Below are positions 1,424 through 12,332 of a DNA stretch of 32,000 nt, piece after piece (position 1 is the stretch's first letter; every line of letters begins with the position of its first letter). The notes below the pieces were generated by a model that searched no databases, was not told the DNA's origin, and saw only the letters and a list, made by a program, of their open reading frames with translations. Made by a program: the position numbers and the translations under genes. The stretch comes from Archaeoglobus fulgidus DSM 4304 (lineage in GTDB: Archaea > Halobacteriota > Archaeoglobi > Archaeoglobales > Archaeoglobaceae): the NCBI RefSeq assembly GCF_000008665.1, contig NC_000917.1, forward strand, positions 1,320,001 through 1,352,000, read 5' to 3'.

Positions 1424-1468
1424 AATGGACTTTTGATGCACATTTTCCTTTCTTCCCGCTTTTATAGC
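1424..1468 (+). promoter_or_regulatory. Copy 1 of the conserved box AATGGAC-N5-ATGCACAT, followed by a pyrimidine-rich spacer and a TTTATA box. Promoter of the ferredoxin operon.
   Basis: AATGGAC (1424-1430) and nt 1435-1468 (34 nt) match 4124-4130 and 4135-4168 exactly; only the four spacer bases 1431-1434 differ. TTTATA is at 1461-1466. TTAGGAGGTGAT lies 7 nt before GTG 1503. Confidence 0.6.
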
Positions 1469-1478
1469 ACCTCAGCGA

Positions 1479-1712
1479 TTGCGGTTAGGAGGTGATTCAG
1501 AAGTGGTCGTGGAGCAGATAAGCGGATGCATTGGTTGCGGGACATGTGTTGAAGTGTGCCCTACCGATGTTTTCCGGCTTGAAGGTGGGAGGGCAGTAAT
1601 CAAGTATCCCGAAGACTGTCAGATTTGCCACCTATGCCGGCTTTACTGTCCGGTGGATGCAATCACAATCTCGCCAGAGAAGTCACTTCCTGTAATCGTT
1701 GCGTGGGGATGA
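1479..1712 (+). CDS. 2x[4Fe-4S] ferredoxin.
   Basis: Two CxxCxxCxxxCP motifs (CIGCGTCVEVCP and CQICHLCRLYCP). The track start at 1479 is TTG. GTG at 1503, preceded by AGGAGGTGA, is the more likely start (about 69 aa). Confidence 0.85.
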   Translation: MRLGGDSEVVVEQISGCIGCGTCVEVCPTDVFRLEGGRAVIKYPEDCQICHLCRLYCPVDAITISPEKSLPVIVAWG

Positions 1713-1767
1713 TTTATGAAAGAGCTTTTGAAAAAATACGGTTTCCTCTGGAAGAGCCTCCTGTTCG

Positions 1768-1782
1768 TTTTTTTTTTTTTTT
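1768..1782. repeat. T15 homopolymer tract between or within the ferredoxin-operon genes.
   Basis: I counted 15 consecutive T directly in the sequence. The tract separates two reading frames that would fuse with T14. Confidence 0.95.
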
Positions 1783-1848
1783 GCGGTAACAATTTACTCG
1801 CTTGACGGTTTTCCAAGGCGGACTGCGTTAAAGGAGGCTATCTCCTTT

Positions 1849-2400
1849 ATGACCGTTCTCTCCTTCACACTGATGGTCAACCAGTTTTACCTCACGAGGG
1901 GCTTTAGGCTAATCGAAGGGAAGGGAAGGATGAGCTACATCGTAAAAGCGCACAGGTTGTTCGGATACATCTCAGTCGGCTTTCTGCTATTCCATCCTCT
2001 TCTTGAGGTTCTTCCGAGGCAGTTTGAAGGAAGCATACAGCCATTCGATGCTTTCTGGAAAATAATCACCACAGACAATTCGGCCATACTGCTGGGAATC
2101 GCTGGATGGGCTGTCATGCTAACGCTGGCAGTAACATCAGTTTTGCGAAAAAGGCTTTTCAAAAATTACAGGAAATGGAGGACGTTTCACGGTATTCTCG
2201 CTGTTGTCTTGATTACAGTGGTGGGATACCACGTTTTGGTTCTGGGGAGGCACTCAAGTCTGGCTATGAAGGCGTTCTATGCCGTTTTGCTGGCTGGAGG
2301 TTATGTGACGATGATTAAAACCTATGTTTTTGACTTAAGGAGGGAAGAGAAATGGAAGAATCGAGGTTTAAAATTAGCAGAAGACAGTTCCTCGCCTTAG
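1849..2400 (+). CDS. Ferric-reductase-like (NOX/FRE/MsrQ-type) di-heme b membrane protein. As written, the N-terminal helices may be cut off by a frameshift.
   Basis: There are two H-x13-H pairs inside TM helices (AHRLFGYISVGFLLFHP and FHGILAVVLITVVGYHV), the bis-heme ligand pattern of ferric reductase domains. AGGAGG lies 11 nt upstream of ATG 1849. The upstream ORF 1716-1805 (MKELLKKYGFLWKSLLFVFFFF..) joins this frame if the T15 run were T14. Confidence 0.7.
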   Translation: MTVLSFTLMVNQFYLTRGFRLIEGKGRMSYIVKAHRLFGYISVGFLLFHPLLEVLPRQFEGSIQPFDAFWKIITTDNSAILLGIAGWAVMLTLAVTSVLRKRLFKNYRKWRTFHGILAVVLITVVGYHVLVLGRHSSLAMKAFYAVLLAGGYVTMIKTYVFDLRREEKWKNRGLKLAEDSSSP

Positions 2401-4079
2401 CGGGAGCTGCGGGGGTTGCTGCTTTGGGCGTCAGATTCTTTGCTGGTAATGAGCCATATGTTGAAAGAGATTATACCATTGACTCGGATAAGTTCAGGGA
2501 GGAGTTCATCACAACCGACGTGCTTGTGGTTGGAGGGGGAATGGCAGGGCTGTTTTCTGCGGTGAAAGCTCATGATGCAGGTGCGAAGGTTCTGATGGTC
2601 TCCAAGGGGCGATTGGGATGTTCGGGTCAGACGCCTTTTGCAAAGGGCTTCTTTGTGTTTGACTCAAAGACAAGCCCAGTCTCTCTTGACGAGTTCGTGG
2701 AGCTTGTGTCTCAATCCGCTCTTGGGTCTAACAACAGGGCATACACGAGACAGCTTGCCATGTATTCGAAGGACAGGGCTGAAGAGCTGAGGAAGTGGGG
2801 ATTCTTCGACTCCTCCCTTTACCACGAGCCTTTCCGCAGACCTATCGACGAGAGGGGGATCAGAGTCATGGAGAGAATTATGATTACGCATCTGATAAGG
2901 GAGAATGGAGTTATTGCAGGTGCAGCTGGCTTCAGCCTTGATGAGGAGAAGTTGTACTTTTTCAACGCCAAAAGCGTCGTTCTCTGCACCGGTGCAGGGG
3001 GATTCAAGCCTTACGGCTTCCCCATCCGGGATTTGACGCACGATGGAAGTGTCATGGCCTACGAGATTGGTGCGAGAATAACAGGCAAGGAGTGGAACGA
3101 CGGCCACACCACGAGTTCACAGTATCCCGCAGCCTGCTACGACAGCTGGCACGGGATATTCGAGAACAAGCCCTCAATTACGGGCGTTGAGATTCACCAC
3201 GATTTGGGAGTGGAGCTGAATTATGCTACCTACATAAGAGGCGGTCCGGTATCGATGGGGGGACAGATGGCAGAGGTGTCGGGTGGCCCATACGTTCCTG
3301 AGGAGTTTCGCAGGGCAGCGCCATCCGAAGGTCGAACGCAGGGGCCACCAGAAAGAGGTGAACGTCCACCACCAGGAGGAGGCGGTTATGTCGTCGGAGG
3401 AGCCTCTGCGGGAATGTCCATACACAAGTCTGAGGGGCTGGTGCCTATCAACGACAGATGTGCCACCGACATTCCGGGCCTTTACGCTGCCGGCGACGCT
3501 CTCGGATCCCACATGTCAGGTGGGATTTACACGCAAATCGGATCGTCCTTAGCGGGTTCAGCAGTTCAGGGGGCGATTGCGGGGGAGGAGGCTGCAAACT
3601 ACGCCAAGGACATAGACCTCCAGAGCATTCCCGAATCCACGGTTAGCAGGATAAGGGAGGAGATTCTTGCCCCTCTAAACAGGGATTCCGGCTACAGCCC
3701 GGCGTGGGTAACTCAGGTTTTGCAGGGAGTTATGGTTCCCAACTTCGTGCTCTACATCAAGAAAGCCAGCATACTCAGCGCTGCGTTGGCATACGTAGAG
3801 GAGCTTAGAGACCATCACGTTCCGATGCTCGTGGCAAGAGACCTGCACGAGCTGCGTTTAGCCCATGAAACCAAGAATATGATAGTGAATGCAGAAATGA
3901 AGCTGAGAGCATCACTTTTCAGGGAGGAAAGCCGTTTGAGCCACTACCGCCTTGACTATCCGGAAATTGACGATGAAAACTGGAGCGTTTGGGTTAACAT
4001 CTACAAGGGTTCTGACGGCAAAATGAAGCTGGAGAAACAGCCCTTTGGCTACTGGCCGAATGGGGACCCCATTGAGTGA
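2352..4079 (+). CDS. Tat-exported FAD-dependent oxidoreductase of the FrdA/SdhA/AprA flavoprotein superfamily.
   Basis: A twin-arginine signal (SRRQFLALAGAAGVAALG), the dinucleotide-binding fold DVLVVGGGMAGLFSAVKAHDAGAKVLMVSKG, and the C-terminal ESRLSHYRLDYPEIDDENW typical of this superfamily. AAGGAGGGA serves as the SD. The gene overlaps the upstream gene by 49 nt. Confidence 0.75.
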   Translation: MEESRFKISRRQFLALAGAAGVAALGVRFFAGNEPYVERDYTIDSDKFREEFITTDVLVVGGGMAGLFSAVKAHDAGAKVLMVSKGRLGCSGQTPFAKGFFVFDSKTSPVSLDEFVELVSQSALGSNNRAYTRQLAMYSKDRAEELRKWGFFDSSLYHEPFRRPIDERGIRVMERIMITHLIRENGVIAGAAGFSLDEEKLYFFNAKSVVLCTGAGGFKPYGFPIRDLTHDGSVMAYEIGARITGKEWNDGHTTSSQYPAACYDSWHGIFENKPSITGVEIHHDLGVELNYATYIRGGPVSMGGQMAEVSGGPYVPEEFRRAAPSEGRTQGPPERGERPPPGGGGYVVGGASAGMSIHKSEGLVPINDRCATDIPGLYAAGDALGSHMSGGIYTQIGSSLAGSAVQGAIAGEEAANYAKDIDLQSIPESTVSRIREEILAPLNRDSGYSPAWVTQVLQGVMVPNFVLYIKKASILSAALAYVEELRDHHVPMLVARDLHELRLAHETKNMIVNAEMKLRASLFREESRLSHYRLDYPEIDDENWSVWVNIYKGSDGKMKLEKQPFGYWPNGDPIE

Positions 4080-4123: not shown

Positions 4124-4168
4124 AATGGACAAAAGATGCACATTTTCCTTTCTTCCCGCTTTTATAGC
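4124..4168 (+). promoter_or_regulatory. Copy 2 of the conserved box plus TTTATA box. Promoter of the secreted-protein pair.
   Basis: AATGGAC-AAAAG-ATGCACATTTTCCTTTCTTCCCGCTTTTATAGC. TTTATA is at 4161-4166 and TAAGGAGGTGAT precedes ATG 4209. Confidence 0.6.
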
Positions 4169-4208: not shown

Positions 4209-4727
4209 ATGAGGAAAGTGCTGGCGGCGTTGCTGGCTCTGGTAGTGGTTGGGGTTGTTGCAGTATCTGCCCAAGGCTTTCATCCGGCAGTGCCAAAGCT
4301 GGAAATAAACGAGAGCAACTTTGAGGACGTGAAGGCGAAGATTCTGAGCCACCTTGAAGAGAGAGTAGAGGACCTGCAGAAGCTGAAGGAGGACGTTGAA
4401 AATGCAAATTCAGCTGATGAGCTGAAGAGCGTTATGGAGGAGCATGCTTTGAGCAGGGCGAAGGACATGACGCTTAGAAAAATTGACAGGGCTATTGAGA
4501 GGCTGGAGAGCAGCGGAAACAGTGATGCGGTAAGCGAGCTTGAATCGCTCAAGGAGAAGGTAAGCGGTGCTTCGAGCATGGAAGAGCTGAGACAAATCAT
4601 GGAGGAGTTCAGGGGAATAATGGAGGATGCTGGATTCATGAATGATGGAATGCCTCCGAAGATGCCGTGCGGTGGGATGCCTGAGGATGGGCCAAGAATG
4701 CCTAACGCAAACTCTGCAAATGCCTAA
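4209..4727 (+). CDS. Secreted alpha-helical protein of unknown function with a Met/Pro-rich C-terminal tail (paralog A).
   Basis: Sec-type signal MRKVLAALLALVVVGVVAVSAQG. Charged helical repeats (ADELKSVMEEH and SMEELRQIMEEFR). Tail GMPPKMPCGGMPEDGPRMP. Confidence 0.7.
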   Translation: MRKVLAALLALVVVGVVAVSAQGFHPAVPKLEINESNFEDVKAKILSHLEERVEDLQKLKEDVENANSADELKSVMEEHALSRAKDMTLRKIDRAIERLESSGNSDAVSELESLKEKVSGASSMEELRQIMEEFRGIMEDAGFMNDGMPPKMPCGGMPEDGPRMPNANSANA

Positions 4728-4760: not shown

Positions 4761-5210
4761 ATGCCGGCAAGGAAACTGACCTTCATTTTAATAATAATGC
4801 TCTCTGGCGCAGCCATTCTTTCCGGATGCACTTCGCAAGGCGAGGACGTTAAACCTGAACCCAAGCCTGAGGTTGACGAAAAAGTGACAGTTCCGAATCC
4901 TGAAACCACATCAAACATCTCTGCACCAATGCCCCCTCTAAAGAACTCCACTTCTCCAGTACCCCCCGTAAACGACCTTGAAGGGGGCAAAGAGGCTCTC
5001 TTGGACATGATAAACCGAACCATTGACATGCTTGAGAGAGAAGGGGCAAGAAGTGACATAATTTCGGAACTCGAATCTCTGAAGGAGAAGGTAAGCAGCG
5101 CAACGAGCATGGAAGAGCTGAGAGAAATCATGGAGGAGTTCAGGGCGATACAGGACGATGCCGGAATCCCGAATCCTGAGATGCCCAAGAGCGCTCCCAG
5201 AGCGCCTTAA
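4761..5210 (+). CDS. Putative lipoprotein, paralog B of the preceding secreted protein.
   Basis: Signal peptide with a lipobox (AAILSGC), then a Pro/Thr-rich linker, then the shared block SELESLKEKVSSATSMEELREIMEEFRAIQDDAG. Confidence 0.7.
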   Translation: MPARKLTFILIIMLSGAAILSGCTSQGEDVKPEPKPEVDEKVTVPNPETTSNISAPMPPLKNSTSPVPPVNDLEGGKEALLDMINRTIDMLEREGARSDIISELESLKEKVSSATSMEELREIMEEFRAIQDDAGIPNPEMPKSAPRAP

Positions 5211-5936: not shown

Positions 5937-6704
5937 ATGAGGAAATCAGCCTATGAAAAATACCTGAAAAAACCGCTAACACCATTGCCGTGGGAACATC
6001 GACTGATACTGGAGAAAGGAGAAGATATCCCTTTAGAAGGAGTTTTTAGCTTCTTGGAAAAGGACAAACTGCTCGATGAGGGCTATCTGCCCTACGAGAA
6101 CGGCTTCCACCACTTCCCTGACGGCAGAGCTTACGTCGCCTGTCTGACGAAGATGCCGAAGGTTAGTGCAGAGATGATTTACTGGTGGTTCAGGTGGCAT
6201 TCTGAAGATGCAATTCGCTACCAGATATGGTATCCCGGCAAACATTTTGACGTTAGAACAGATGAGACCGGCTCCACTCACTACGTAACGGAAGACGTCG
6301 GCACGGGAAAGCAAAGAATTGTCATCAGGTTCATGACTCCTGCAGAGTTCGGATTCAGCGAGGAAAAGCTTGAAATGATTGATCTGAAGAGAAATGCCAT
6401 TATATGCGCCAGAGTCGGGGCAGAGATTCCCGGACATGCAGTGTGGCACACCTGGATGTGTCACTGCGCCAGAGAGGCTGAGAAAGGAGTTGAGCTGAGG
6501 AGTAGGTTCTGGATCGGGGAAGAGATAGAGGTTAGCGGCCCTCTCACCTCGATCCTAACAAGATTGCTCAATATACTGTCAGTGAAGAAAAGAATGATTC
6601 CCGGAAATATTGGAAAGCACATGTTCCATCACTGCTCTCAGGAGTATCACAATCTGGCAGAGATTTTGCCTGAGGTTTATGAGGAATTCGGAGGTATGAG
6701 CTGA
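5937..6704 (+). CDS. Conserved hypothetical protein, rich in His/Cys/Trp. It may be a metal-dependent hydrolase (a faint resemblance to the DAPG/phloretin hydrolase family, not verified).
   Basis: A 255-aa ORF with a GGTGA SD. Motifs MIYWWFRWHSEDAIRYQIWYPGKH, HAVWHTWMCHC and HMFHHCSQEYHNL. The function call rests on weak recollection only. Confidence 0.5.
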   Translation: MRKSAYEKYLKKPLTPLPWEHRLILEKGEDIPLEGVFSFLEKDKLLDEGYLPYENGFHHFPDGRAYVACLTKMPKVSAEMIYWWFRWHSEDAIRYQIWYPGKHFDVRTDETGSTHYVTEDVGTGKQRIVIRFMTPAEFGFSEEKLEMIDLKRNAIICARVGAEIPGHAVWHTWMCHCAREAEKGVELRSRFWIGEEIEVSGPLTSILTRLLNILSVKKRMIPGNIGKHMFHHCSQEYHNLAEILPEVYEEFGGMS

Positions 6705-6710
6705 GTGCAG

Positions 6711-6751
6711 ATGGACAAAAGATGCACATTTTCTTTTCCTCTTTCTTAAAT
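6711..6751 (+). promoter_or_regulatory. Copy 3 of the conserved box with a TATA-like CTTAAAT. Promoter of the minimal histidine kinase gene.
   Basis: ATGGAC-AAAAG-ATGCACATTTTCTTTTCCTCTTTCTTAAAT, starting 7 nt after the stop of the upstream gene. ATG 6784 lies 33 nt after the TATA-like box. Confidence 0.5.
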
Positions 6752-7610: not shown

Positions 7611-7653
7611 AATGGACCAAAAATGCACATCTTTCTTTCTCCCAGGTTATATA
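7611..7653 (+). promoter_or_regulatory. Copy 4 of the conserved box plus TTATATA box. Promoter of the surface-protein/ABC operon.
   Basis: AATGGAC-CAAAA-ATGCACATCTTTCTTTCTCCCAGGTTATATA. ATG 7675 lies 21 nt after the TATA, giving a near-leaderless transcript. Confidence 0.55.
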
Positions 7654-7674: not shown

Positions 7675-9144
7675 ATGAGAGGAATTTGGATTGCTGGACT
7701 CGTAATGCTTCTCTTAATTGTCCCTTCGGTGGCGGAGGAAAACAGCAGCATTGCTATCCAGAACCTCAACGTGGAGCCGCAGAGGCTTTTCGTAGGAGAT
7801 TCCGCAATCGTTACCGTGACTCTCTACAACCCCCTCGAAAGCGCTGTTAAGGTCTCCTCAGTGAGCGTTTTGGGATCCGGTATATCCTACGACTCCTTCG
7901 AGCTCGGCTACATACCGCCGAAGTCCACTCACACCTTCAGCTTCGCCGTTAAAGCTGTAAAGGAAGGTGTGCACAACGTAGAGGTTGCGTTTTACACGGA
8001 AAGCGGTGCGGTGAGGAGCTACTTCACGCTTTTTGTTGAAAACAGGATGCCTGAAATCGCCTTTAGCGAGAACGTGAAGGTTGGGGAGGTCAACAACCTG
8101 AGCCTCATCATCTCCTCTCCCGTAGAGATAGAGAATGTCGTCATCGACCCCCTCTTCGAGTCAGAGCCCGACAGAATCATCCTTTCGTCGGTTTCGGGAA
8201 CCGCTGAAGTCCCCATCAGATTCTTCGGCGAGCGGAGCGATTACGAGTTCAGAGTCTCCTTCTACAGCGGCAACAACTACCACAGCTACACCGCTAAGCT
8301 CACACCTGCCTTTGAAGAGGGGAGTGAGCTTGCCGTGAGCGTCTCGGTTCCTCAGTCCTCGGCCTTCCTCTACGACGTGGTGGAGATTTCCGCAACAATC
8401 ACCAACCTGAAAGATGATGCTGTCAGCGCAATCAAATTCTCCGCCTCGTCGAACAACGGAAAGGTCCTGCTCTCCACCGACGAAATTGCTGAACTTGAAA
8501 GCGGCGAAAGCTCGGAAGTCACCCTCCTTTACTCCCCAGAACGGAGTGGGAGGGATGTGATAACCCTTGCAATCAGCTACAAAGACGGGATGGGAAAAGA
8601 GAGGACGCTGGAGAAGGCTGTAAACATCGATGTTCAGGACAGCTCCGCCGTCGACGTTTCGGGAGTTGAAATAGAGGCAAAGGCGACATCCTCAGCCTCC
8701 GCTCCGCCGAGGGGGATGTTTGGTCCCACATCAAGCTCGGTCTCAACGAGAGTGGAGATAACTGTAAGCGGCGAAGTTGTGAACAGGGGATTCAGCTACG
8801 CAAAGAACGTCCTCGTTTACCTTGACTTCGGAAGCGATACCGAGGAGTACTTTGTGGGAGAGGTGGAGCCCTCAGACTCGGACAGCTTCAGCATTCCCGC
8901 AAGCGGAAGTGAGAGGAGTGTTAAGGTTGTTGTGGAGTGGACCAACGAGCTTGGAGAGGTGCACAGCATTTCCAAGAGCTACCAGCTCAATCCCATAACG
9001 GTAAGCACAACATCACCACCGCAGCGCCAGAGCCTTCTGACACCTCTGAATCTGGCAGCAGTCGCAATTGCTGCCGTCGGTGGAGTTCTGGTTTTCAGAA
9101 AATGGAGGAGCAGGAGAAAGAATGAAAGTAATAGAGCTGGTTGA
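7675..9144 (+). CDS. Cell-surface protein with repeated beta-sandwich (CARDB/COG1361 S-layer-like) modules, an N-terminal signal peptide and a C-terminal TM anchor.
   Basis: Signal MRGIWIAGLVMLLLIVPSVAEE. Repeated segments of the type LFVGDSAIVTVTLYNP / YDVVEISATITNL. C-terminal LNLAAVAIAAVGGVLVF followed by RKWRSRRK. Confidence 0.7.
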   Translation: MRGIWIAGLVMLLLIVPSVAEENSSIAIQNLNVEPQRLFVGDSAIVTVTLYNPLESAVKVSSVSVLGSGISYDSFELGYIPPKSTHTFSFAVKAVKEGVHNVEVAFYTESGAVRSYFTLFVENRMPEIAFSENVKVGEVNNLSLIISSPVEIENVVIDPLFESEPDRIILSSVSGTAEVPIRFFGERSDYEFRVSFYSGNNYHSYTAKLTPAFEEGSELAVSVSVPQSSAFLYDVVEISATITNLKDDAVSAIKFSASSNNGKVLLSTDEIAELESGESSEVTLLYSPERSGRDVITLAISYKDGMGKERTLEKAVNIDVQDSSAVDVSGVEIEAKATSSASAPPRGMFGPTSSSVSTRVEITVSGEVVNRGFSYAKNVLVYLDFGSDTEEYFVGEVEPSDSDSFSIPASGSERSVKVVVEWTNELGEVHSISKSYQLNPITVSTTSPPQRQSLLTPLNLAAVAIAAVGGVLVFRKWRSRRKNESNRAG

Positions 9145-10988: not shown

Positions 10989-12332
10989 ATGAAGAACGTG
11001 GAGGTTCTTACAGGAGACCCGAAAAAGGCCATTCTGAAGCTTTCGGCACCGATGGTAGTCAGCAACTTGATTTTCACTCTTTACAACCTCGTGGACGGCA
11101 TATGGGTGGCGGGACTCGGCCCGGATGCGCTCTCCGCTGTGGGCCTGTTCTTCCCCATTTTCTTCGTCTTCATCGCAATATCGTTCGGTCTGAGCGTTGG
11201 GGCAAATTCTGCGGTATCGAGAAGAATCGGCGCGAAGAGATACGATGCTGCATGCGTTGCCGCCACTCTCGCGGTGGCAATGGGGATCCTTGTATCGATT
11301 CCCATGACCCTGTCGGTAGTGTTCCTCAATGGTGTGATGGTGTTTCTCGGTGCGGACGGGGAGATTTTGAGGCTGGCCGTCGATTACGGAAGCATCATGG
11401 TTCTCGGAAGCGTTTTTCTGGTTTTCAGCAACGTTTCGGCAGGGATTCTCAACGGAGAGGGGAATGCGAGAATGGCCATGTATGCCAACGCTGCCGGAAG
11501 CCTTCTGAACATGGTTCTCGACCCCATTTTCATCTACCTGCTCGGCTACGGTATTGCGGGTGCGGCGATTGCAAGCGTAATTTCCATGGCTCTCTCCTCA
11601 ATCGTTTTCTCATTCTGGTTTTTGAGCGGGAGAAGCTACGTGAGGTTCAGGGTTGCGGGATGGAACTTGCCGACAGTGTTCGACCTTCTTAGAGTCGGCA
11701 TGCCGGCTTCTCTCTCGATGCTGACGATGTCTGTTGCCTTCATGCTGATAAACCGCGTCGTCATCGAAACGGGAGGAAGTGAGGGGCTGGCAGCATACAC
11801 GAGTGCGTGGAGGCTGATTCAGTTCGGCTTTGTCCCGCTTTTTGGAGTTAGTGCTGCTTTAACGGCAGTTTCAGGCGCAGCTTACGGGGCGAGAAATCCG
11901 AGGAAGATTGGTGAGTCCCTGAATTACACCGTGAAGCTTCTGCTGGCAGTTGATGCAGCGATACTCGCCTTAATGGTAGCTTTCGCCCCTCAGATAGCTC
12001 TGATTTTCACATACACCGAAGTTTCAGCCGTAATGTATGAGGAGATAGTCCGAACAATCAGGATTGCGGCATTCGTTCTGCTTTTCGCTCCGCTCGGAGT
12101 CTCCTCATCTGCCGTTTTTCAGGGGATGGGAAAGGGAGAGAGGAGCTTTGCGATAACCGTTTTGAGGGCGATTGTTTTTCAGGTATCGCTTTGCTACGTT
12201 CTCGCCGTGCCATTTGGATTCGACGGAGTTCTTCTTGGCTTCGTTCTGGGGGAGGCGCTTGGATGCTTTACAGGTTTCAGCTGGGTAAGATTGACTGTGA
12301 GAAGGCTCGAAAGATGTCTGCTGAGCACTTAA
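10989..12332 (+). CDS. MATE-family multidrug/oligosaccharidyl-lipid efflux transporter.
   Basis: 447 aa with about 12 TMs. The N-terminal LSAPMVVSNLIFTLYNLVDGIWVAGLGPDALSAVGL is typical of NorM/DinF-type MATE proteins. Confidence 0.8.
   Translation: MKNVEVLTGDPKKAILKLSAPMVVSNLIFTLYNLVDGIWVAGLGPDALSAVGLFFPIFFVFIAISFGLSVGANSAVSRRIGAKRYDAACVAATLAVAMGILVSIPMTLSVVFLNGVMVFLGADGEILRLAVDYGSIMVLGSVFLVFSNVSAGILNGEGNARMAMYANAAGSLLNMVLDPIFIYLLGYGIAGAAIASVISMALSSIVFSFWFLSGRSYVRFRVAGWNLPTVFDLLRVGMPASLSMLTMSVAFMLINRVVIETGGSEGLAAYTSAWRLIQFGFVPLFGVSAALTAVSGAAYGARNPRKIGESLNYTVKLLLAVDAAILALMVAFAPQIALIFTYTEVSAVMYEEIVRTIRIAAFVLLFAPLGVSSSAVFQGMGKGERSFAITVLRAIVFQVSLCYVLAVPFGFDGVLLGFVLGEALGCFTGFSWVRLTVRRLERCLLST

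Follow-up and report, generated by a model that had tools for sequence, protein, structure and literature searches.

Three genes lie on the + strand within positions 1479-4079 of a 32,000-nucleotide (nt) stretch of Archaeoglobus fulgidus DSM 4304 (NCBI RefSeq assembly GCF_000008665.1, contig NC_000917.1, positions 1,320,001 to 1,352,000 of the forward strand), here called the window. They encode a small ferredoxin, a membrane protein with a ferric-reductase domain (FRD) and a flavoprotein with a twin-arginine translocation (Tat) signal. An initial annotation, made from the DNA letters, had read this trio as a trans-membrane electron conduit to an extracytoplasmic reductase. Here we describe the three genes and their relatives, and then consider how the products might be assembled and wired.

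The first gene (1503..1712) encodes a ferredoxin of 69 amino acids (aa). Its open reading frame (ORF) opens at a TTG at 1479 (1479-1712); the likelier start is the GTG at 1503, which is preceded by GGAGGTGA and is also the start of the gene call in the identical contig L001. The initial annotation correctly described the product as a 2x[4Fe-4S] ferredoxin without a signal peptide: two CxxCxxCxxxCP motifs are present, along with Fer4 family matches. Ferredoxins of the informative loci described below are 69-73 aa long and nearly identical in sequence; orthologs of 70-71 aa have the common C-terminus ...PVxVSWG. In the PDB, the small stand-alone partner subunit that the ferredoxin matches best is the beta subunit of 3'-phosphoadenosine 5'-phosphosulfate (PAPS) reductase (5.5e-8).

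The second gene (1716..2400) encodes the FRD membrane protein, and its frame is interrupted. It was first noticed as ORF 1849-2400, with two H-x13-H pairs. The pairs are real, invariant and located in transmembrane helices (TMs), but the 183-aa ORF is a truncated reading of the gene, beginning in the middle of TM2 and missing TM1 and half of TM2. Three-frame translation and ortholog alignment place the ancestral start at ATG 1716 (MKELLKKYGFLWKSLLFV...), directly after the ferredoxin stop, in agreement with the orthologous loci L006 and L005. The frame from ATG 1716 encodes MKELLKKYGFLWKSLLFVFFFF... and stops at 1805; the matching ortholog N-termini are MKKLVEKYGFLWKSLLFVFVALMIY... in an Archaeoglobi metagenome-assembled genome (MAG) and MKAFVNKYNYLTKLIFFM... 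in a Deferribacteraceae genome. Frame 0 holds the 5' part of the gene (1716-1805), and frame 1 the 3' part, to 2400. Both frames meet in TM1 in a run of 15 T residues (T15; 1768..1782), the sole homopolymer of at least 8 nt in the 32-kb window, and an intact ancestral frame requires T14 (or T11 or T17). No such run is present in the Archaeoglobi relative (TTTGTTTTTGTTGCT), which makes the T tract a species-level expansion; it added three Phe codons.

Across the frameshift the protein is well defined. Pfam assigns it to Ferric_reduct (PF01794; E = 3.3e-13; 50.2 bits, cut-off 28), and it has six hydrophobic segments with a positive-inside topology that places both termini in the cytoplasm. The His pairs fall in predicted TM3 (codons 1951-1953 and 1993-1995; 1951..1995) and TM5 (codons 2188-2190 and 2230-2232; 2188..2232), and all four His are invariant in 19 orthologs. 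These orthologs were taken from the retrieved loci; a word-indexed search with the 183-aa ORF gave three proteins only. Conservation is concentrated on the outer loops, which average 0.72-0.77 with nine invariant positions and include the stretches FPRR...LKE, HP..V.PR.FE.G..P..AF and LGRH. The cytoplasmic segments average 0.47-0.65, and the cytoplasmic loops are basic and short. A PDB sequence search with the FRD returned nothing, and a profile search returned STEAP4 alone, marginally (E = 0.07).

The annotation had compared this protein with NOX, FRE and MsrQ alike. The comparison holds for NOX and FRE, whose heme sites the predicted sites here resemble; the likeness to MsrQ extends only to its being a stand-alone module. 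In YedZ/MsrQ and in STEAP the first His is replaced by Arg and the outer heme alone is bound (PMC3591440). In the trio the first canonical His (codon 1951) is invariant and the partners are a ferredoxin and a flavoprotein, not the molybdoenzyme MsrP/YedY; moreover, an NCBIfam search gave no family for the FRD, MsrQ included. We therefore rejected an MsrQ identity. Short-form FRD proteins with four His have been rated rare (PMC3591440).

The third gene (2352..4079) overlaps the FRD gene by 49 nt and encodes a flavoprotein of 575 aa. As first described, it belongs to the FrdA/AprA superfamily: Pfam finds FAD_binding_2 and Succ_DH_flav_C, and an AlphaFold2 model reached a predicted local distance difference test score (pLDDT) of 91 when 93 distant representatives were added to the 30 close orthologs, which alone gave 52. 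Foldseek matched the model best to the alpha subunit of the PAPS reductase of Methanothermococcus thermolithotrophicus (8a8o; 7e-30) and to AprA of adenosine 5'-phosphosulfate (APS) reductase (about 1e-27), both with TM-scores of about 0.7, followed by FrdA and SdhA (E = 1e-25 to 1e-27, TM-scores 0.66-0.69).

The N-terminus of the flavoprotein carries the twin-arginine signal peptide (2352..2444; RR codons 2379-2384). Behind SRRQFL stand the uncharged h-region LALAGAAGVAALGV and then a basic c-region. Every one of 30 orthologs has R10, R11 and F13, and the paralogs carry Tat motifs too; the Pfam TAT_signal match itself is weak, at 18.3 bits against a curated cut-off of 22.7. A true start further downstream, which would have removed the signal, can be set aside: the next Met is M64, already within the Rossmann GxGxxG strand, and translation must therefore include the signal region. 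In four loci (L007, L011, L024, L027) a TatC gene (1.2e-45) lies directly 3' of the flavoprotein gene, with a TatA-like gene in two of these. For A. fulgidus, a passage of PMC3387779 that cites Coulthurst 2012 notes the identification of a Tat signal-recognition system. Export of the flavoprotein by Tat is most likely, as judged from this motif and its conservation.

To place the trio in context, we collected its relatives. A genome scan gave 24 orthologous loci (L006-L029), a contig look-up added L005 and a plasmid search added L038. With the window included, and without three loci that have no upstream DNA and one truncated remnant, 23 loci are informative. The FRD gene stands between the ferredoxin and flavoprotein genes, in the same order, in 20 of them, which bears out the coupling of an FRD to a Tat-exported flavoprotein seen in the initial annotation. 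The truncated locus, L024, could have passed for one lacking both FRD and ferredoxin; it was rejected as such, being a decayed remnant in which the flavoprotein (2005-3603) has lost its first ~100 residues with the Tat signal and Rossmann start, and which keeps an OmpR-type regulator 5' and tatC 3'.

The annotation had remarked on the pairing as one seen in an archaeon. It is no archaeal feature: the module is bacterial, found in two Archaeoglobi (A. fulgidus and the MAG) and in more than 12 bacterial phyla, including Deferribacteres, Desulfobacterota, Spirochaetes, Omnitrophota, Campylobacterota, Krumholzibacteria, Fibrobacteres and Acidobacteriota. The A. fulgidus flavoprotein is 59-82% identical to those of the bacterial phyla (60-78% over the best 120 matches), which indicates horizontal transfer, and the bacterial breadth against only two Archaeoglobi fits acquisition from bacteria. 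Archaeal FRD genes were earlier concluded to stem from horizontal transfer (PMC3591440). A complete trio lies on the mobilizable (MOBP) 600-kb plasmid p599725 of Paracoccus seriniphilus (L038 3599-8614), beside a divergent response regulator/sensor kinase pair; this megaplasmid is a possible vehicle for wide horizontal spread. The distribution fits a mobile bacterial module, common in marine microbes, that Archaeoglobi acquired. The NCBI labels on the plasmid are '4Fe-4S dicluster domain-containing protein', 'ferric reductase-like transmembrane domain-containing protein' and 'FAD-binding protein', and all database names of the flavoprotein relatives are as generic as the last. The trio is thus strongly conserved from an archaeon to more than 12 phyla, and travels on a mobilizable megaplasmid, yet has only generic names.

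The exceptions to the standard gene order are informative. The ferredoxin gene is directly 5' of the flavoprotein gene in 23 of 23 informative loci, and these include three without FRD (L012, L015, L027). In two of the three, both from spirochaetes, a NapH-like membrane iron-sulfur (Fe-S) protein (PF12801, 4.7e-15) with the motif GGAWFCGWLCPFG and a C-terminal 2x[4Fe-4S] domain is encoded 3' of the ferredoxin-flavoprotein pair (L012 8812-9486; L027 9018-9725). By its domains and position, the NapH-like protein is a non-orthologous replacement of the FRD, and the membrane component a swappable input module. Paralogous Tat-flavoproteins (39-47% identity; L036, L037, L039) likewise have an adjacent ferredoxin of 71-79 aa and no FRD. 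On plasmid pILYOP01 of Ilyobacter polytropus (L039 419-8714), one ferredoxin and three tandem flavoproteins are grouped with an FMN-binding protein, and a dedicated tatA-tatC-tatA set follows the cluster; on a metagenome contig (L036, L037), tandem flavoprotein/ferredoxin pairs occur with genes for major facilitator superfamily, amidohydrolase and lactamase_B proteins. These clusters point to a larger family of Tat-flavoprotein/ferredoxin enzymes. Among the 150 best flavoprotein representatives, there is no natural ferredoxin-flavoprotein fusion.

From this pattern the ferredoxin is most likely a co-exported small subunit of the flavoprotein, like AprB, rather than a cytoplasmic electron donor. 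It is retained in the three FRD-less loci and in the FRD-less paralog clusters, and it stays with the enzyme even where a NapH-like substitute brings its own cytoplasmic 2x[4Fe-4S] domain. Moreover, the nearest structural relatives of the flavoprotein (PAPS reductase alpha, AprA, FrdA and SdhA) take their electrons from a bound Fe-S subunit. The best match of the ferredoxin among small PDB partner subunits is just such a subunit, and the gene order is that of aprBA (L030-L035). The initial annotation had preferred a cytoplasmic ferredoxin donor and had raised co-export as an alternative; it is the alternative that fits these data better.

We think it rather probable that the trio forms one membrane-bound flavin enzyme whose catalytic part faces the cell exterior and which is wired through the ferredoxin and a two-heme FRD. 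In this scheme, the flavin adenine dinucleotide (FAD) subunit with its AprA/FrdA fold and the 69-aa 2x[4Fe-4S] subunit would fold in the cytoplasm and acquire their cofactors there. Both would then be exported together by Tat, the ferredoxin as a hitchhiker on the twin-arginine signal of the flavoprotein. The pair would dock on the conserved outer loops of the six-helix, four-His (two heme b) FRD; docking on the outer side is suggested by the concentration of FRD conservation on those loops rather than on the cytoplasmic ones. Electrons would pass from membrane quinol or another inner-face donor to the inner heme, the outer heme, the two [4Fe-4S] clusters and the FAD, and from there to an extracytoplasmic substrate.

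Several points weigh against this proposal. The first concerns the A. fulgidus copy itself, where the FRD frame is broken in all four assemblies: the run is T15 in the window and T13, T13 and T12 in the others, which otherwise show no mismatch to the window over the shared length and one or two indels. A 229-aa FRD call in one of these other assemblies rests on a different, non-ancestral start. In archaea, a sense-strand oligo-T of five to six residues is already an efficient terminator at high temperature (PMC2253867), and stronger U-tracts terminate more effectively (PMC8716108). T15 is accordingly a probable oligo-T terminator, and the U15 tract should end transcription before the flavoprotein gene. 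The TTTATA of the operon promoter (1461..1466) is the sole TATA-like hexamer from the upstream regulatory box to the flavoprotein gene start, and a TATA-like scan found no internal promoter-like site between 1783 and 2352. With a terminating tract and no TATA-like site before the flavoprotein gene, the A. fulgidus conduit may be silent, attenuated or slippage-dependent.

The A. fulgidus operon might, then, be a decaying remnant, with an FRD pseudogene and an unexpressed flavoprotein, of a module that is functional elsewhere. We regard this as possible but doubtful. Besides the frameshift, which none of the four assemblies repairs, and the expected termination, it is favored by the surviving ORF, with TM1 and half of TM2 missing, and by our search having returned no NCBI protein record for the FRD ORF. 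On the other hand, most sequencing methods miscount long homopolymers, and the observed lengths bracket the in-frame T14. No other FRD codon and no part of the flavoprotein gene is damaged, the promoter box has stayed conserved, and some transcripts could regain the frame by transcriptional slippage on U15. The run could be sequencing noise, or it could be a tract that is hypermutable or phase-variable, or a terminator or attenuator of the oligo-T kind within the operon. Given the T15 interruption, the A. fulgidus copy may be the wrong one to study.

A second point is that the active site of the flavoprotein matches no characterised enzyme. The dicarboxylate-binding and catalytic residues of FrdA we take to be His232, Arg287, His355 and Arg390 (E. 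coli numbering). A check of the active site for residues of the fumarate or APS type, which the annotation had called for, showed that the superfamily His pair is kept (H252, H358) and that the fumarate and APS residues are not: the equivalent of FrdA R390 is Thr394, within an invariant YTQ, the position of the covalent-FAD His is Gln93, and AprA Asn74 aligns with an invariant Phe101. The capping/central domain (about residues 217-373, including the FrdA Arg287 region) aligns with no solved structure. NCBIfam scores are far below their cut-offs, at 162 of 587 bits for PRK08275 (the best), 148 of 718 for TfrA, 89 of 642 for aprA and 51.7 of 1100 for MFR_Fp. Identity with fumarate reductase, SdhA or MfrA was rejected on the scores together with Thr394 and Gln93, and identity with the APS reductase AprA on the score and Phe101. 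Since neither set of active-site residues is kept, the chemistry is possibly new for the fold and would act on an extracellular substrate. The FAD is predicted to be non-covalent, as in reductase-type relatives, from Gln93.

Because sequence fixes no direction, electrons could also run the opposite way, from an extracytoplasmic dehydrogenase through the ferredoxin and two hemes to menaquinone at the inner face, forming an energy-conserving redox loop like that of formate dehydrogenase-N. Di-heme membrane subunits do run in this direction in Fdn-N-type enzymes, and the carriers of the trio include sulfate and sulfur reducers that rely on quinone-linked dehydrogenases. We nonetheless consider this flow unlikely. 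The characterised proteins of the FRD superfamily all move electrons outward (PMC3591440, PMC8238504), the secreted PF00890 enzymes that have been characterised to date are reductases (bioRxiv 10.1101/2022.12.26.521950), and a non-covalent FAD is again the reductase-type state.

The third point is that a four-His FRD, with an inner and an outer heme and no dehydrogenase domain, needs an inner-face donor (PMC3591440). Menaquinol is our simplest guess for it; a cytoplasmic ferredoxin could serve as well, giving low-potential electrons to the inner heme, with the two hemes then feeding the exported flavoprotein directly. The missing signal peptide and the tight coupling of the ferredoxin stop to the FRD start would suit such an arrangement. 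We find it distinctly unlikely all the same, since the ferredoxin adjoins the flavoprotein even where there is no FRD (L012, L015, L027 and the paralogs), is kept beside NapH-like proteins with an Fe-S domain of their own in the cytoplasm, and would have to dock on cytoplasmic FRD loops that are short and poorly conserved. Flavoproteins of the AprA/FrdA fold are fed by a bound Fe-S subunit. Nor is the ferredoxin strongly acidic, as diffusible ferredoxins are: a hand count of charged residues gives a net charge of about -3 in A. fulgidus and about +3 in the L005 ortholog.

That the twin-arginine motif is no working export signal, the flavoprotein and ferredoxin a cytoplasmic enzyme and the FRD an unrelated neighbour, is most improbable: the sub-threshold TAT_signal score and the absence of the RR motif from many more distant relatives would allow it, but RR-x-F is invariant in all 30 orthologs and followed by an uncharged h-region, M64 forces translation of the N-terminus, dedicated TatC/TatA genes adjoin in several genomes, and the FRD gene overlaps the flavoprotein gene and keeps its company in 20 of 23 loci.

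Returning to the proposed exported enzyme on its FRD wire, the principle is known: membrane redox modules feed Tat-exported reductases in MsrPQ, in Mfr and in the systems with MsrQ-like or NapH-like modules. The initial annotation's view that nothing of the kind had been described therefore holds only for the specific combination, as full-text literature searches found no description of a flavoprotein of the AprA/FrdA fold, with a new active site, that is joined to a four-His FRD and a 2x[4Fe-4S] ferredoxin. MsrPQ (YedYZ) shares with the trio a stand-alone short-form FRD that feeds a Tat-exported soluble reductase outside the membrane. In contrast to the four-His FRD of the trio, MsrQ/YedZ, with Arg for the first heme-ligand His, has one heme plus a flavin or quinone (PMC3591440, PMC12525009). 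Its catalytic partner is a molybdoenzyme rather than a flavoprotein, and MsrPQ has no ferredoxin subunit.

Mfr (MfrABE), the methylmenaquinol:fumarate reductase of Campylobacter and Wolinella, has a signal-less Fe-S subunit that is co-exported, and the complex is attached to a membrane anchor. Its Fe-S subunit is of the SdhB type with three clusters and its anchor is of the non-heme SdhE type, both of which differ from the trio. The flavoprotein of Mfr is, like ours, a twin-arginine FrdA-type protein exported by Tat to the outer face (PMC4148689). Unlike MfrA, the trio flavoprotein falls far short of the MFR_Fp cut-off and does not keep the fumarate-binding Arg.

AprAB and the M. thermolithotrophicus PAPS reductase, the closest folds, are built from a flavoprotein and a small 2x[4Fe-4S] ferredoxin-type subunit, the pairing proposed for the trio, in which the ferredoxin gene lies 5' as in aprBA. 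In contrast to the trio, they are cytoplasmic, without a Tat signal or such a membrane partner; identity to the trio flavoprotein is about 20%, Asn74 of AprA is replaced by Phe101, and the central domain (217-373) is unalignable. NOX and FRE have the six TMs and the His pairs in TM3 and TM5 spaced by 13 residues, which implies two stacked b hemes and outward electrons. Unlike them, the trio FRD has no FAD/NADPH dehydrogenase domain, its proposed acceptor is a protein complex instead of O2 or a metal ion, and it is only marginally similar to solved members, as the STEAP4 match illustrates.

Two further groups resemble the trio in organization. MsrQ-like and NapH-like modules are membrane components that feed extracytosolic reductases in modular fashion (Meheust et al. 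2021, PMC8238504), and FRD, NapH-like and FMN-binding components interchange here as well. Secreted PF00890 'flavin reductases' are inducible by substrate and have adjacent regulators (bioRxiv 10.1101/2022.12.26.521950), a likeness taken up below. Flavinylation-associated systems are defined by ApbE flavinylation and FMN-binding domains, neither of which is among the top 25 Pfam families of the trio neighbours. Their difference from the trio extends to the relay, here a [4Fe-4S] ferredoxin, and to Succ_DH_flav_C in the flavoprotein; an FMN-binding protein occurs only in the Ilyobacter paralog cluster.

Taken at its broadest, and put forward tentatively, the trio may represent an 'inside-out' AprAB- or complex-II-like flavo-iron-sulfur enzyme, exported whole by Tat with the ferredoxin as hitchhiker and served by a dedicated two-heme FRD wire. 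It would then be an unrecognised, widespread respiratory or detoxifying class and one branch of a Tat-flavoprotein/ferredoxin family with interchangeable inputs (FRD, NapH-like, FMN-binding). If the proposed model of an exported enzyme on an FRD wire is right, the trio is a new way to power extracellular chemistry, by way of heme b, [4Fe-4S] and FAD, and supplies a physiological partner for the rare four-His short-form FRD proteins. It would also offer a defined starting point in the search for a new electron acceptor or toxin outside the cell, of relevance to marine sediments and hydrothermal sulfate reducers.

The genes around the trio bear on its function, which is probably that of an inducible reductase for respiration or detoxification. 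Two-component regulators predominate among 138 proteins that flank the orthologous loci, with 10 response regulators, 7 OmpR-type output domains and 5 histidine kinases, ahead of TatC (4) and Lcl_C (4). None of the 25 most frequent Pfam families in this set is a conserved transporter, catabolic enzyme, ApbE, FMN-binding protein or cytochrome c. A Deferribacteraceae locus has an extracytoplasmic function sigma factor and, at its flanks, small secreted proteins that resemble CpxP/Spy on visual inspection and have no Pfam match; the Desulfobacteraceae locus L018 has a weak LTXXQ match.

In A. fulgidus, the operon is headed by copy 1 (1425..1443, + strand) of a regulatory box, ATGGAC-N5-ATGCACAT. 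The window holds four exact copies (1425-1443, 4125-4143, 6711-6729 and 7612-7630) against 0.18 expected by chance, each ~20 nt 5' of a TATA-like element. The box is kept 5' of the orthologous trio operon in the Archaeoglobi MAG (L006), with copies at 6056-6074 and 8765-8783. The units headed by the four copies are the trio, two paralogous secreted proteins (172 and 149 aa), a histidine-kinase-like ATPase, and a CARDB protein with a MacB-type ABC exporter. The box thus marks a predicted four-promoter regulon made up of genes for the envelope and for efflux. In such surroundings the trio may have an inducible role in the envelope or in detoxification, or may be a respiratory reductase that is inducible, like the secreted PF00890 reductases induced by their substrates (bioRxiv 10.1101/2022.12.26.521950).

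Divergent from the trio, on the - strand, lie genes for an HTH_45 winged-helix regulator (426-698) and a 227-aa polytopic membrane protein (708-1391) that has no Pfam match. Both are syntenic in the Archaeoglobi MAG (L006 5066-5338 and 5348-6064), and they are candidates for the regulator and sensor of the box regulon. A DAPG-hydrolase (PhlG-like) homolog (5937-6704; 3.4e-72) and a MATE efflux pump (10989-12332) flank the regulon, and the 1.4-12.3 kb stretch looks like a detoxification/efflux island.

Two minor features remain. Within the flavoprotein, a Gly/Pro-rich loop (3303..3386, + strand; residues about 318-345) with low pLDDT at residues 328-335 lies just before the conserved VGGxSAGxxxHKxEG. 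A low-complexity loop of Gly, Pro and charged residues, about 20-70 aa long, variable and predicted to be disordered, occupies this position in all orthologs and also in paralogs. Downstream of the trio, no family match was found for the two paralogous secreted helical proteins (4209-4727 and 4761-5210), which share a 119-nt repeat (4536-4654 and 5067-5185; 82% identical) and both end in Met/Pro-rich tails (...GMPPKMPCGGMPEDGPRMP). In L001, a 1-nt deletion (G at 5147) alters the C-terminus of the second.

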